Shown: positions 5,907 to 11,309 of the stretch, in pieces | How the letters are laid out: each line of letters starts with the position of its first letter | How positions within the stretch are numbered: the stretch's first letter is position 1 | Source of the DNA: a virus | Lineage: Duplodnaviria; Caudoviricetes | IMG/VR virus record: IMGVR_UViG_3300028832_000095 | Span: 64,001-128,000 of that record | DNA: 64,000 nucleotides | Reading direction: 5' to 3' (one strand) | The notes under the pieces: generated by a model | Told to the model about the DNA's origin: nothing | Seen by the model: only the letters and a program-made list of their open reading frames with translations | Databases searched by the model: none | Program-made: the position numbers and the translations under genes

Positions 5907-5935
5907 TTGACAAAAATGAAATAATATGTTATAAT
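5907..5935 (+). promoter_or_regulatory. sigma-A promoter of tRNA operon
   Basis: Consensus TTGACA-N17-TATAAT with extended -10. Confidence 0.9.
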
Positions 5936-6054: not shown

Positions 6055-6127
6055 GTACCAGTAGCTCAGTTGGTAGAGCATATCCCTTTTAAGGATAGGG
6101 TCAAGGGTTCAAACCCCTTCTGGTACA
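6055..6127 (+). tRNA. tRNA-Lys(UUU)
   Basis: Cloverleaf GTACCAG/CTGGTAC; anticodon loop CTTTTAA. Confidence 0.95.
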
Positions 6128-6134
6128 TTTTGAT

Positions 6135-6222
6135 GGATCCTTAGCTCAACAGGTTAGAGCCAGCGTCTTATAAACACTAGGCCCTTACAAGGTATATCTG
6201 GGTTCGAGTCCCAGAGGATCCA
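6135..6222 (+). tRNA. tRNA-Ile(UAU) with long variable arm
   Basis: GGATCCT/AGGATCC; loop CTTATAA; 19-nt variable region with CCTT/AAGG stem. Confidence 0.85.
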
Positions 6223-6229
6223 CTCAAAT

Positions 6230-6302
6230 TACTCCGTGGTGAAGTGGTAAACACATACGGCTTTGACCCGTACATTCGTTGGTTCAAATCCAACCGGAGT
6301 AA
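6230..6302 (+). tRNA. tRNA-Gln(UUG)
   Basis: TACTCCG/CGGAGTA; loop CTTTGAC. Confidence 0.95.
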
Positions 6303-6309
6303 TTCTTTT

Positions 6310-6384
6310 CGGAATGTAGATCAGTTTGGCTAGATCGCCACATTTGGGATGTGGAAGTCGCAGGTTCAAATCCTGTCATTCCGA
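6310..6384 (+). tRNA. tRNA-Pro(UGG)
   Basis: CGGAATG/CATTCCG; loop TTTGGGA. Confidence 0.95.
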
Positions 6385-6385
6385 T

Positions 6386-6528
6386 TATGTAATATAAGTG
6401 CTCCGGTTTTATACTACCTTGACGCTAGATAGAGGTGGAGGAAGGTGTAACAGAGTTACTTAAAGCTATTGCCTTTGAAAATCCAAGCAGGAGTTAAATG
6501 GAGTTTGATGAACAGCTTATATTATATA
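6386..6528 (+). ncRNA. putative structured spacer RNA
   Basis: 14-bp closing stem (2 G-U) filling the Pro-Leu spacer, internal hairpins. Confidence 0.5.
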
Positions 6529-6529
6529 T

Positions 6530-6615
6530 GCTACTGTGATGGAATGGCAGACATGAAAGACTTAAAATCTTTTGCCGGATACGGTGTGCGGGTTCAAGTC
6601 CCGCCAGTAGCACCA
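6530..6615 (+). tRNA. tRNA-Leu(UAA)
   Basis: GCTACTG/CAGTAGC; loop CTTAAAA; long V-arm; encoded CCA. Confidence 0.95.
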
Positions 6616-6685
6616 ATCCTCAAATTGTTGAGGATTATGTCATTTTCGTTTTGTTGTCTCCTTTTTTACTAATCTTATCTTTTTA

Positions 6686-6874
6686 TTGTGGGAAAGTCAG
6701 CAGTACAAGAAACTATGTTTTAAAAAGAGTGCATTCTTCTTTTACATAGTTTATGATTTCTCCTGTTTCCGGATCAATCATACTCTTGTAAATTGAATAT
6801 TTATAAGTCGGATTTCCTGTCTCCATTAAAATCTATTGATTTTTAATATTCACGAAATACTGACTTTCCCGCAA
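6686..6874 (+). ncRNA. putative multibranch ncRNA with C/U-rich loops
   Basis: 15-bp closing stem TTGTGGGAAAGTCAG/CTGACTTTCCCGCAA enclosing nested helices. Confidence 0.6.
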
Positions 6875-6890
6875 ACCTTATTTTCAGAAA

Positions 6891-7316
6891 GTGGTGTTGA
6901 AAGTGATACAACAAGAATCGTTACAAATTCCATGTGAAGGAATATTTTGGGTAATAGATAATTGCTTAGTCTATTTTGCAGATAAGGTAAATCCAAAAGA
7001 TCCTTATGATTCAACAGATCTTCTACATAAAGATACATGGAGAGAAATAAAAGACGAATATCTTGTAGACGGAAAACAGGTTTCCTTTGATTATTTTCCT
7101 CGTGGAAGAGTTGAAACATTAGTAATTCAAGATACTGACGGAACCTTAGATCACTATGAAGCGACTATATATTTAGATAAATGTATCAACAATAAAGAAT
7201 TGATCTCGGAGGTTATAGATACGTTTAGACTATACCTTCCAAATGTGAAGGTTGAAAATGGAGGTCAGTTATTTATAGATGGTAGTCACTATACTTGTAA
7301 TAAGTGTAGAAAATGA
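6891..7316 (+). CDS. hypothetical protein, paralog of 46389..46814
   Basis: GIFW..H..W..Y(F/Y)PRGRVE..DGS(D)HY.C shared. Confidence 0.75.
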   Translation: MVLKVIQQESLQIPCEGIFWVIDNCLVYFADKVNPKDPYDSTDLLHKDTWREIKDEYLVDGKQVSFDYFPRGRVETLVIQDTDGTLDHYEATIYLDKCINNKELISEVIDTFRLYLPNVKVENGGQLFIDGSHYTCNKCRK

Positions 7317-7319
7317 TAG

Positions 7320-7437
7320 GGAATCTTCGTTTAAAAGTGATTAGCAACCAAAAAGAAAGACTGAATTATCAGTTTAGTTAATCCGAAGACAGTTCCTGAT
7401 CAGAACTATGTAAGGTACAAACTTACAGATTCCACCA
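7320..7437 (+). ncRNA. tRNA-like RNA with acceptor stem, T-like arm and CCA end
   Basis: GGAATCT/AGATTCC-A-CCA; GTAAG-GTACAAA-CTTAC arm; no canonical D arm. Confidence 0.6.
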
Positions 7438-7443
7438 ATATTT

Positions 7444-7516
7444 GCCGTGGTAGCATAAATGGATATGCAACATCCTTCTAAGATGTCAGATACGGGTTCG
7501 AGTCCTGTCCACGGTA
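7444..7516 (+). tRNA. tRNA-Arg(UCU)
   Basis: GCCGTGG/CCACGGT; loop CTTCTAA. Confidence 0.95.
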
Positions 7517-7522
7517 TGTTAT

Positions 7523-7676
7523 GTAGGAGTGGCGCAAGAGGTAAGACACACCGGATATAGAATCCGGTGGAAGAATTAAACATTGGTGAGTTCGACTATA
7601 ACCTAGGATGATGTCAGAACAAAATGTCCCTTGTTTATGATATCCTGTGTAGGTTCGAATCCTACCTCCTACACCA
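7523..7676 (+). tRNA. tRNA-Leu(UAG)-like RNA with 81-nt variable-arm insertion
   Basis: GTAGGAG/CTCCTAC-A-CCA; CCGGA-TATAGAA-TCCGG; GTAGG-TTCGAAT-CCTAC. Confidence 0.75.
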
Positions 7677-7680
7677 ATAA

Positions 7681-7798
7681 GTCCAGACCCAAACTCCGTA
7701 GAACAATATGGGGTTTAAACGGGGAAAAATAAGTGATTAGCTTATGGAGAAAGGTGGACGCACTTGATGACGGTTTGCAAGGGCTTTACGTCATCCAC
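7681..7798 (+). ncRNA. putative structured spacer RNA
   Basis: GTCCA/TGGAC enclosing two hairpins, then GATGACG/CGTCATC hairpin. Confidence 0.4.
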
Positions 7799-7804
7799 AA
7801 ATAT

Positions 7805-7877
7805 TCCCTGTTAGATCAATCGGTAGATCAACTGACTGTTAATCAGTGGGTTGCTGGTTCAAGTCCAGCACAGGGAG
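7805..7877 (+). tRNA. tRNA-Asn(GUU)
   Basis: TCCCTGT/ACAGGGA; loop CTGTTAA. Confidence 0.95.
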
Positions 7878-7881
7878 TTCA

Positions 7882-9071: not shown

Positions 9072-11309
9072 ATGGAAACATTGGCAGTAAAGTATAGACC
9101 TAAGACATTTGATGATATGGTAGAACAAAGTGTTGTAAAAGACATTTTGATGAATCATATTAAGGAGAAGAAAGTAAGAAATGGTTATCTGTTTAGCGGA
9201 AGCGCTGGCTGCGGAAAAGCACAACCTTTGTATAGCAAGGTACTAACTCCTAAAGGTTACATTGCTATGGGTGAGGTTTCTGAAGGAACAGAAGTTATAA
9301 CACATACGGGATCAGTTGCATCCGTTTCGGAAGTATTTCCACAGGGAGAACGTGACATTTATGAGATACAGTTTAGTGATAGAACAAGTATTCGTGTGGC
9401 AGATAATCACCTAAATGTTGTATATAGGTACAATCAAAATAAGAAAATGAGAGAAGATTTTGTATTAACAACAATGGAGCTTATAGAACTATTAAAAAAA
9501 TCTAAAGATAAGATTAGAGTTGACCTTCCTGTGGTTGACTTTGATAAGACGGATGTTCCAATTGATCCATATCTATTAGGTTGCTTAATAGGTGACGGAT
9601 CACTCCATAATAATTTTGGTTTTTCTAATTCAGAAAAAGATGTTATTGATAAAGTATCCGGTATAGTTAGTAAGTATGATTGTTGCTTAGTACACAAATC
9701 TGGTTGTGATTATGCTATAAGTAGAACAACAGATTCTTTTAAAAATTACTATGTTTTTGAAGGAATTACTTATAAAGGACCTTATAAATTGATTGATAGA
9801 CTTGTTGAATTGGGTTATCCGAAATTTGATTCTGAAACAATTTTACAATTATCTTGCAATAAGGCGAAGATTATAGTTTCTAGGTATCCTGAACTCATCG
9901 GTAAAATAACCAAGATAACCAATGAAAATTATAATCAGCAAAATAAACTTTTAACACTCATAAAGAATATGGGTCTTGACGTTGGATCTAAGGACAAATT
10001 TATACCGAAAGAATATCTTATAAATGATGCCAATACAAGACTTCAAATTTTACGAGGTCTTTATGATACCGATGGATATACATCGTCTGGTGGGGAAACA
10101 AGTTTCTCCACATCTAGTAAAAAACTGTCCGATGATTTTGCTTTTTTAGTTAGATCTTTGGGTTGTCGTGATACGGTTATTGTTAAAAAATGTGGATACA
10201 GAAATCCAAATGGTGATTATGTAGAGTGTAGCAATAGTTATGAGCACTATATTAAATTTCCAAATAATTTAGTATATTGTTCTTCTGAAAAACATTTAGC
10301 TAGACGTAAAGAAAGACAACACGATCCAATCAAGAGTATTGTAGATATTAAATATGTAGGAAAAGAATTTTGTCAGTGTATTTATGTAGATCATGAAGAT
10401 CATACATACATTTCGGATGATTTTATTCCTACACATAATACAACCTCGGCACGTTGTTTCGCAAAGAGTCTTAATAGTTCTATAACAGAGCTTGACGCAG
10501 CTTCCCATAGTAGTGTGGATGATGTAAGGGATCTTATTAAAGATTCAAGACTGAAACCGATGGGAACTGATTATAGAGTATACATCATAGATGAAGCGCA
10601 TTCGCTTAGTAATCAGGCTTGGCAAGCTCTACTCAAGACATTGGAAGAGCCAACACCAACAAGCATTTTTATTTTTGCTACAACAGATCCTCAAAAAATT
10701 CCAAATACAATTTTATCCAGAATTCAAAGGTATAACTTCAAAAGAATTTCACATAAAGGAATTGTAAACAGATTAAAATACATACTTGATTCTGAAAATA
10801 AGAATGGTTGTAACTATACATATACCGAAGATGCCATTGATTATATCGCAAAATTATCTGAGGGTGGTATGAGAGATTCCATAACACTTATGGAGAAGTC
10901 ATTAGGTTATTCTGATAATCTTACAATGGAATCTGTAACAAAGGCTCTCGGAACTGTTGACTATGAAACAATGTTCACACTCACGGACAGCATTTATAAT
11001 ATGGACAGAAAATGTGTTATTTCGTGTATTGAGGAAACACATAGGGAAGGTCTTGATCTAAAACAGTTTATCAAGAATTATAGCTTTTTTGTTCTTGACC
11101 TTTGTAAATATGATGTATTTAGGTCTTTTGAGTATCTTCAGATGCCGAATACATATGAAGATAGGATGAAGAAGTATACACCAGATCACTATAAGTTCTT
11201 TACAGACTTACTCAATACAGTAATGCAACTCAATACAGATATTAAATGGGAATCTACTCCGAAGCCACTTATTGAATCAACACTTGTTCTTCTTTGTTCG
11301 GAGGGGTGA
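9072..11309 (+). CDS. dnaX: DNA polymerase III gamma/tau clamp-loader subunit, intein-containing
   Basis: LAVKYRPKTF, GCGK|TT, ELDAAS, IIDEAH, LLKTLEEP, TILSR, GGMRD. Confidence 0.93.
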   Translation: METLAVKYRPKTFDDMVEQSVVKDILMNHIKEKKVRNGYLFSGSAGCGKAQPLYSKVLTPKGYIAMGEVSEGTEVITHTGSVASVSEVFPQGERDIYEIQFSDRTSIRVADNHLNVVYRYNQNKKMREDFVLTTMELIELLKKSKDKIRVDLPVVDFDKTDVPIDPYLLGCLIGDGSLHNNFGFSNSEKDVIDKVSGIVSKYDCCLVHKSGCDYAISRTTDSFKNYYVFEGITYKGPYKLIDRLVELGYPKFDSETILQLSCNKAKIIVSRYPELIGKITKITNENYNQQNKLLTLIKNMGLDVGSKDKFIPKEYLINDANTRLQILRGLYDTDGYTSSGGETSFSTSSKKLSDDFAFLVRSLGCRDTVIVKKCGYRNPNGDYVECSNSYEHYIKFPNNLVYCSSEKHLARRKERQHDPIKSIVDIKYVGKEFCQCIYVDHEDHTYISDDFIPTHNTTSARCFAKSLNSSITELDAASHSSVDDVRDLIKDSRLKPMGTDYRVYIIDEAHSLSNQAWQALLKTLEEPTPTSIFIFATTDPQKIPNTILSRIQRYNFKRISHKGIVNRLKYILDSENKNGCNYTYTEDAIDYIAKLSEGGMRDSITLMEKSLGYSDNLTMESVTKALGTVDYETMFTLTDSIYNMDRKCVISCIEETHREGLDLKQFIKNYSFFVLDLCKYDVFRSFEYLQMPNTYEDRMKKYTPDHYKFFTDLLNTVMQLNTDIKWESTPKPLIESTLVLLCSEG
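9219..10439 (+). mobile_element. Ala-starting (class 3-type) intein with LAGLIDADG endonuclease
   Basis: AQPLYSKVLTP..CQCIYV..IPTHN/T; LLGCLIGDG and LRGLYDTDG; 407 aa inside the P-loop. Confidence 0.9.

Follow-up and report, generated by a model that had tools for sequence, protein, structure and literature searches.

The sequence comparisons described here indicate that a 154-nt element in a phage tRNA cluster, a tRNA-like RNA of the Leu type with an 81-nt variable region, is a real, conserved, and structured RNA gene. On balance we lean slightly towards the view that it is a tRNA-scaffolded RNA that does not decode, in which a long rod and the loop at its tip would be the working part.

A tRNA-like gene in a phage tRNA cluster

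The window analyzed here is a stretch of 64,000 nt, bases 64001-128000 of a 201,895-bp IMG/VR virus record (G000; 33% G+C, 84% complete). Genes for a RecA/UvsX-type recombinase, a UvrD-type helicase, an HD-domain protein, a Holliday-junction resolvase, and three clamp-loader subunits lie near the element. The closest matches of the RecA-type protein are from Streptococcus and Clostridium phages (38-43% identity), so that the host is probably bacterial and, more narrowly, probably a Firmicute. Related contigs were drawn from ENA and Logan records with the prefixes STEW19 and XIEF21, which presumably belong to ruminant-gut catalogues, and the source may be a large phage of the gut or rumen. The tRNA cluster occupies positions 6055-7878 of the + strand and consists of tRNAs Lys, Ile(UAU), Gln, Pro, and Leu(UAA), a 141-aa ORF, tRNA-Arg(UCU), the element, and tRNA-Asn. 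The features relevant to the element are as follows:

5907..5935, + strand: consensus sigma-70 promoter upstream of the tRNA genes (TTGACA-17-TATAAT with TG), by pattern match only
7443..7517, + strand: tRNA-Arg(UCU), 5 nt upstream of the element on the same strand (ARAGORN, Rfam)
7523..7676, + strand: the whole tRNA-like RNA gene, 154 nt with encoded CCA (Rfam tRNA, 29.9 bits; covariance models R1 and R2)
7523..7529, + strand: 5' strand of the acceptor stem, GUAGGAG, pairing with 7666-7672; 7 bp, perfect (100% of alignment cells paired, 4 of 7 pairs changed on both sides)
7532..7549, + strand: D arm, with a 3-bp stem, a loop containing G18 G19, and a C11.A24 mismatch in the window copy (Rfam, covariation)
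7551..7567, + strand: anticodon arm, with a 5-bp stem (CCGGA/UCCGG) and a 7-nt loop, UAUAGAA, at 7556-7562 (Rfam)
7568..7648, + strand: 81-nt variable region, one long imperfect rod (Rfam, folds, covariation)
7569..7571, + strand: 5' strand of the outer stem of the rod, GGA, pairing with 7643-7645 (UCC); helix 4, 94.4% of cells paired
7577..7588, + strand: 5' strand of the middle stem of the rod, pairing with 7625-7637; 2x2 internal loop in the window copy
7590..7596, + strand: 5' strand of the apical stem of the rod, GUUCGAC, pairing with 7613-7620 (GUC-A-GAAC); helix 6
7597..7612, + strand: apical loop UAUAACCUAGGAUGAU, containing AUARCCUAGGAU, nearly invariant among copies
7649..7665, + strand: T arm GUAGG-UUCGAAU-CCUAC, perfect, with the stem invariant in 6/6 sequences
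7666..7676, + strand: 3' strand of the acceptor stem (7666-7672), discriminator A73 (7673), and encoded CCA (7674-7676)
7804..7878, + strand: tRNA-Asn(GUU), with the element directly upstream in every main-type copy

The Rfam tRNA model (RF00005) aligns to 7523-7673 over the full model (1-71) and recognizes the cloverleaf, with its 7-bp acceptor stem and its D, anticodon, and T arms, only marginally: the score of 29.9 bits (E 0.0024) lies a small margin above the gathering score of 29, and the entire excess length is placed in one insertion in the variable region. Up to E = 1, tRNA is the only Rfam family with a match to the element, and ARAGORN reports no tmRNA. Moreover, ARAGORN does not call the element with its intron option on or off, which, together with an Rfam score only at threshold, bears out the atypical status suspected in the earlier note, a reading of the bare sequence. 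Sequence and Rfam likewise agree with that reading on the perfect acceptor stem and T arm, A73, the encoded CCA, and the 81-nt variable region at 7568-7648, as well as on a paired anticodon stem (5 bp), an imperfect D stem (C11.A24), and A33. The latter is the A at 7557, followed by UAG (positions 34-36) at 7558-7560. The fold of the 154-nt RNA is more stable than those of its shuffled versions (z = -2.9).

The neighborhood of the element varies among relatives. The 127-nt spacer between the element and tRNA-Asn (7677-7803), which holds a GAUGACG...CGUCAUC hairpin, is present only in the window and the L031 lineage, the spacer being 6 nt in L002, L024, and L038. The 141-aa ORF inside the cluster (6891-7316) has no family match; it is kept in the same place in L040-L048 and is split in L031. 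For a 197-aa ORF downstream of the element no relatives were found. The tRNA clusters of relatives are interspersed with HNH and GIY-YIG endonuclease genes. The gene for the clamp-loader large subunit (window 9072-11309) encodes 745 aa, versus 338 aa in L024 and L031, and the additional segment in its middle matches, in the relatives L041 and L050, intein/LAGLIDADG families; inteins were also observed in the helicase and DNA polymerase of L020, L025, and L027. Upstream of the RecA-type gene in L019, L022, L024, and L030 there is a block of QueC, QueD (PTPS), QueE (radical SAM), and GTP cyclohydrolase I that adjoins a dCMP deaminase, which suggests 7-deazaguanine modification of the phage DNA.

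Distribution, conservation, and fold

Exact and degenerate DNA scans of IMG/VR, JGI metagenome contigs, and GTDB genomes yielded one true homolog only, in the 207-kb phage record G001 (L002:11686-11837, 80% identical to the window element over the whole length), plus three relatives of the loop module (L059, L065, and L067) discussed below. Three matches in GTDB genomes were rejected as chance or as archaeal intron-bearing tRNA. Searches of IMG/VR with the neighboring proteins gave few real relatives, and R1, a covariance model derived from the window and L002 copies, gave a match in G001 alone when run on 12 whole virus records. The productive route led through homologs of the HD-domain protein and the Holliday-junction resolvase to ENA and Logan contigs. 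R1 and R2 recover homologs at 153-178 bits, and the copies found with the covariance models are the following:

L024:15420-15568: main-type homolog
L038:66-215: main-type homolog
L031:2919-3069: main-type homolog, with the same score, 170.4 bits, in six assemblies (L031 to L036)
L052:362-507: divergent sixth relative

Thus the full-length main type is represented by five distinct copies (window, L002, L024, L031, and L038) in related phage contigs of about 200 kb, and a seventh assembly, L037, holds a 5'-cut fragment of the L031 variant. The synteny with a downstream tRNA-Asn(GUU) is common to all main-type copies. In the L050-L054 group the element is absent and Arg is followed by Asn after 6 nt, and the L040-L049 group has the order Arg-Gly-Glu without the element. 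No relative has a plain, "empty" tRNA-Leu(NAG) at the element site; there is either the whole element or nothing. The CCA is encoded in the window, L031, and L052 copies, whereas L002, L024, and L038 read AUUU instead.

The window and L002 elements share 80.5% identity, with 79% for the insert taken by itself. This is close to the identity of the orthologous tRNAs Pro, Ile, and Asn (80-81%); the flanks reach about 50% in a forced global alignment, that is, they are unalignable, and the neighboring HD protein is 68% identical at the protein level. Conservation of the insert at the level of real tRNAs between unalignable flanks points to purifying selection on it as strong as that on real tRNAs. 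The earlier note had allowed that relatives might carry a normal tRNA-Leu, the insert being unique to this copy; the opposite was found, as relatives carry the insert, it is conserved like real tRNAs, and its stems covary. The insert is single-copy in the genome, which rules out a repeat or mobile element.

Conservation is distributed unevenly over the RNA. The regions are listed below with differences per site over the five main-type copies and identity counted against L052:

Anticodon stem: 0.000 differences per site; 2/10 identical to L052
Apical loop of the rod: 0.075 differences per site; 13/16 identical
Acceptor stem: 0.100 differences per site; 5/14 identical
T arm: 0.118 differences per site; 17/17 identical
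Rod stems: 0.147 differences per site; 8/40 identical
D arm: 0.217 differences per site; 13/18 identical
Anticodon loop: 0.457 differences per site; 2/7 identical

The apical loop is the most conserved unpaired part, and the anticodon loop, on a stem invariant in the main type, is the fastest-evolving part. Main-type anticodon loops read UAUAGAA, AGCAGGC, AGAAGGC, and AGAAGGA, with changes between close relatives at positions 32, 33, 34, 37, and 38. Position 33 is a purine in all five copies: the window and L031 have A there, and L002, L038, and L024 have G. Position 34 varies between U, C, and A; none of the five departs from A35 and G36, so that an NAG (Leu) anticodon is formally retained. 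In L052 the loop is AUUGGAG, with the anticodon UGG and normal U33 and A37. The anticodon loop of real tRNAs is among their most conserved parts. Judged from these copies, the conservation pattern is the reverse of that of a decoding tRNA, and the constrained surfaces are the elbow and the rod tip.

With class II tRNA-Leu the element shares the 7-bp acceptor stem, A73 (6/6 sequences), a 3-bp D stem with G18 G19, a 5-bp anticodon stem, a 7-nt anticodon loop, a canonical T arm, the NAG anticodon of the main type, and the location in a tRNA operon. It differs from class II tRNA-Leu in the length of the variable region (81 nt in the window and 76-81 nt in relatives, versus roughly 10-25 nt in class II and 4-5 nt in class I tRNAs), in the purine at position 33 and the fast evolution of the anticodon loop in the main type, and in being missed by ARAGORN and scored at threshold by Rfam.

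The fold was assessed on a model-based alignment (A5) of six distinct sequences, which stem from two or three lineages. On this alignment, whose fitting to the counted structure favors that model and whose double changes come mostly from L052, the cloverleaf plus rod places 96.7% of cells in standard pairs, with changes on both sides in 24 of the 40 pairs; none of 500 shuffles matches these values, and sliding the partners by 1-3 columns lowers pairing to 37-48%. All four cloverleaf helices stay paired across the six homologs, with many two-sided changes. In the rod, helix 5 (12 pairs) is 91.5% paired with 8 pairs changed on both sides, and helix 6 is 100% paired with two-sided changes in all five inner modeled pairs, so that 13 of the 17 pairs of the two helices are changed on both sides; the outermost two pairs of helix 6 (7590-7591 with 7619-7620) are seen in single-sequence folds only. 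Several double changes are also present among close copies aligned by MAFFT. Among close copies, pair 3-70 is A-U, U.G, or U-A (G-C is also seen across the six sequences), pair 11-24 is C.A in the window, C-G in L002, L038, and L024, and U-A in L031, and in the rod one pair changes from G-C to A-U and another from C-G to U-A. The G.U pairs place the structure on the + strand. Finally, in L031 the change of G19 to A occurs together with that of C56 to U, in a variant identical across six assembled samples; this joint change keeps the tertiary 19-56 pair, which argues that the L-shaped elbow probably forms in vivo.

A different shape was drawn for the variable arm in the earlier note, namely one branched into two sub-hairpins, with a second GTTCGA resembling a T loop. 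The branched model pairs 82.7% of cells on the six homologs and does not outperform shuffles, of which 77 of 500 reach this value; its pairs 66-83 and 87-113 each break in three of six sequences. A single long rod is supported instead, and the second GTTCGA is the 5' strand of its apical stem and not a T loop. In the computed thermodynamic minimum of the window copy, which is yet another fold, the T arm is invaded by the insert, and the pair probability of the T stem is 0.02. The alternative helix, between GUUYGACUAUA of the insert and the T arm, can form in 5/5 main-type copies with 89% of cells paired; it is not the computed minimum for L002 or L038, fails in L052, and is indistinguishable from shuffles. 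That this helix serves as a conformational switch is a possibility raised by the folding model.

Proposed role and competing explanations

The loop motif AUARCCUAGGAU lies in a 16-17-nt loop that tips the rod. Its DNA form RCCTAGGAT occurs among 57 loci only in these elements, bar one apparent chance match in L005. Searching for the loop in combination with a T-loop-like motif identified L065 and L067, phage records of 56-60 kb, where a free-standing 11-bp hairpin (L065:5072-5112, the same in L067) is capped by the L052-type loop AAUAACCUAGGAUAAAA, which differs from the loop of the window at about three positions. The hairpin stands directly after a normal tRNA-Ser(GCU) with the T stem AUAGG/CCUAU. 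In addition, the tRNA cluster of a 320-kb phage encodes an RNA of about 147 nt (L059:2903-3049) that shares the T arm exactly and also has an acceptor-like stem and GGCCUAGGAUG. The occurrence of the L052-type loop on a free hairpin in another phage indicates that the loop is portable. The loop also contains CCUA and UAGG, both strands of the invariant T stem. Matches to possible antisense targets in the phage genome are at chance level (10-14 nt only). CCTAGG sites number 5 against 13.6 expected; this deficit follows the general depletion of CTAG and thus says nothing about restriction-site avoidance.

We propose the following mechanism. The element, a derivative of a Leu-type class II tRNA, would be transcribed as part of the tRNA operon and probably excised by RNase P and the enzymes of the tRNA 3' end like any tRNA, with CCA added where it is not encoded. 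The RNA would then take the usual L shape, from which a rod of roughly 22-25 bp, carrying the invariant 16-17-nt loop at its tip, would project at the position of the variable arm. The tRNA body would serve as a scaffold for processing and stability and offer the elbow as a docking surface, the rod and loop would be a portable hairpin module binding a putative partner, protein or other RNA, and the CCUAGG core could form a kissing contact with itself; decoding would have no part in it. Among the roles listed in the earlier note, that of a tRNA scaffold carrying an RNA cargo appears to fit best, since the apical loop is invariant and is also found on a free-standing hairpin elsewhere. A more far-reaching version we offer only tentatively and consider doubtful as a whole: an adaptor-RNA family of these phages, not described before, in which an intact tRNA body would dock through its conserved elbow to the tRNA-handling machinery, and a rigid rod of about 25 bp would present a portable hairpin whose invariant CCUAGGAU loop either brings in a second factor or forms pairs with the UAGG/CCUA T stem, which is just as invariant. 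Such RNAs would be natural "aptamer-tagged tRNAs" for manipulating host translation, tRNA processing, or tRNA-targeting defense, beside other expanded tRNA-like RNAs of the same operons.

Neither G000 nor G001 encodes RtcB, a CCA-adding enzyme, Ro60/TROVE, a tRNA-intron endonuclease, or a reverse transcriptase. Outside the window (L060:1216-3245, that is, G000:C1:153811-155840) an RNA-ligase-like ORF (PF09414, 22.6 bits, below the Pfam cut-off of 27) is followed by an ORF with AAA_33 kinase and HD domains, and the same pair is present in G001. By these domain matches the two ORFs are a possible RNA-repair pair of a polynucleotide kinase-phosphatase and a ligase, which keeps defense-related readings alive.

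That the element is a working tRNA-Leu(NAG) reading CUN codons, with the giant arm as a recruiting or regulating handle of a natural aptamer-tagged tRNA, seems to us rather unlikely. Engineered tRNAs with an aptamer on the variable arm do stay active (PMC7590224). Moreover, the cloverleaf is complete, A73 and a 7-nt loop with A35-G36 in five copies are kept, ARAGORN finds no other CUN-reading tRNA in the window phage, the neighboring tRNA(UAU) of the operon also has a conserved extra arm, and L052 has the normal U33 and A37. However, position 33, where U is near-universal, is the purine described above in every main-type copy, and the loop is the part that changes between close relatives; its A34 in L024 and L038 is unusual in bacterial Leu tRNAs. 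L052 keeps the rod and loop but combines the anticodon UGG with a Leu-like body, and the rod of about 25 bp far exceeds anything that, to our knowledge, fits the ribosome. The odd, fast-changing anticodon loop could instead be bait or an uncleavable mimic, the element being a decoy or inhibitor of host factors that bind tRNA, be it an anticodon nuclease, another tRNA-cleaving defense, a leuS T-box leader, or LeuRS. A loop that evolves fast while its stem is invariant would agree with an arms race, within the tRNA body nothing is more conserved than the elbow (D and T arms, 13/18 and 17/17 identical to L052), the putative RNA-repair pair hints at conflict over tRNA cleavage, and T-boxes are common in Firmicutes, to which the host probably belongs. 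We nevertheless hold this to be quite unlikely: the synthetase, T-box, and anticodon-nuclease ideas all leave the most distinctive feature, the conserved rod and loop, without explanation, R33 would distort the anticodon presentation read by a T-box specifier or an anticodon nuclease, and the ligase match is below the cut-off of Pfam.

The rod itself would be the object of processing if the insert were an intervening sequence or cassette, cut by RNase III, for instance, or another endonuclease, and perhaps sealed by the phage kinase/ligase to give a normal class II or split tRNA and a free hairpin RNA. Rods of more than 20 bp, such as the one here, are the kind of substrate that RNase III takes, the kinase/HD and ligase-like ORFs are present, and the same hairpin is free-standing in L065; the 48-nt insert in the tRNA-Leu(UAA) of a close relative, absent from its orthologue, indicates that tRNA genes of this phage group do acquire short inserts. 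Yet the junctions lie in a 3-bp stem beside a 5x5 internal loop and form no bulge-helix-bulge, G000 and G001 have neither a tRNA-intron endonuclease (tRNA_int_endo) nor RtcB, no Rfam ribozyme or intron matches, a group I intron would need far more than 81 nt, removal of the insert would still leave the R33 loop, and the site is not seen "empty" in any relative, so that we judge this explanation highly unlikely. As for a dead tRNA gene broken by junk DNA, or an assembly artifact, it would agree with the missing ARAGORN call and with the D-stem mismatch and A33 of the window copy, but it is extremely improbable and, by the comparative data, already contradicted. There are five distinct full-length copies and a divergent relative, six independent assemblies agree exactly on one variant, of which a seventh holds a 5'-cut fragment, and the single-copy insert is conserved like real tRNAs while the flanks are not, with compensatory changes throughout. 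Thus the preference of the earlier note for a retained, probably non-decoding role over decay is upheld by the conserved insert, the covariation, and the fast anticodon loop, whereas its branched fold is not.

Known systems and other expanded tRNA-like RNAs

For a non-decoding RNA on a tRNA scaffold, the closest natural analogues appear to be T4 RNAC and RNAD (species 1 and 2 stable RNAs), which are likewise small RNAs encoded among phage tRNA genes. According to PMC3014915 and PMC9697503, both are stable RNAs that are expressed, and their role is unknown. The acceptor and T arm of RNAC resemble those of a tRNA; in contrast to the element, RNAC lacks a complete cloverleaf and carries its extra domain outside the variable arm, and neither RNA has the CCUAGGAU loop. 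At the T4 locus (L015) R2 matched only tRNA-Leu at E <= 0.01, with no homology to rnaC or rnaD, and what these RNAs have in common with the element is limited to tRNA-like ends and a place in a tRNA cluster. In design, the nearest analogue would be the aptamer-tagged or V-Spinach tRNAs, where a hairpin for a cognate partner is placed on the variable-arm tip of an otherwise intact tRNA (PMC7590224). These are man-made, with inserts of 19-51 nt, and V-Spinach tRNAs with the 51-nt insert are only marginally active (PMC7590224), whereas the element occurs in nature, exceeds them in length, and departs from the canonical anticodon loop. The bacterial Y RNA YrlA, which works with Ro60, also combines a tRNA-like module and a long protein-binding helix in one non-coding RNA, but there the long helix is formed by the two ends of the RNA and the tRNA-like part is internal; the Rfam YrlA model does not match the element, and G000 and G001 lack a TROVE/Ro60 gene.

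In the literature searched, whose coverage is incomplete, no natural tRNA with such an arm was found, and the variable arm of the element is 3-4 times longer than any natural one described there. Because ARAGORN misses such genes, they are left unannotated. Phage tRNA clusters are usually read as codon supply or as anti-defense spare parts. The element would be a tRNA-shaped RNA kept in such a cluster by selection for something besides ordinary decoding, and a natural counterpart of the synthetic aptamer-tagged tRNAs. The CCUAGGAU hairpin offers a testable handle through which a new interaction in phage-host conflict, RNA-protein or RNA-RNA, could be found, and the element may provide a comparative entry to the long-unsolved role of T4 RNAC/RNAD-type RNAs in phage tRNA operons.

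This phage group tends to build on tRNA bodies, with the element as the most extreme case, and its other expanded tRNA-like RNAs appear to be under selection as well. In the window, the tRNA(UAU) at 6135-6223, called Ile, has a conserved extra arm of 15-16 nt (CCCUUACAAGG...); this form is also present in L002, L020, L023, and L027, and L024 and L040 have unrelated UAU tRNAs of class I length. With A73 and a long arm in one tRNA, the identity of the charging synthetase becomes a question. The tRNA-Leu(UAA) genes L053:216-347 and L052:1872-1956 belong to loci with identical resolvase proteins, and one has the 48-nt insert that is absent from the other. The insert lies between U34 and A35, the classic site of a group I intron, is far too short for such an intron, and holds a T-arm-like hairpin, GAAGG-UUCAACU-CCUUU. 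A 128-nt tRNA-like RNA in L052 (1513-1640) and L050 (667-794) has a Leu-type D arm, a 27-nt variable arm, and a hairpin of about 30 nt in place of the anticodon loop, with compensatory differences between the L050 and L052 copies (ACCG/CGGU versus GUCG/CGAC). Finally, in other phage tRNA clusters R2 detects tRNA-like RNAs of 125-139 nt with large internal expansions (L017:5204-5328 and L065:4612-4750).
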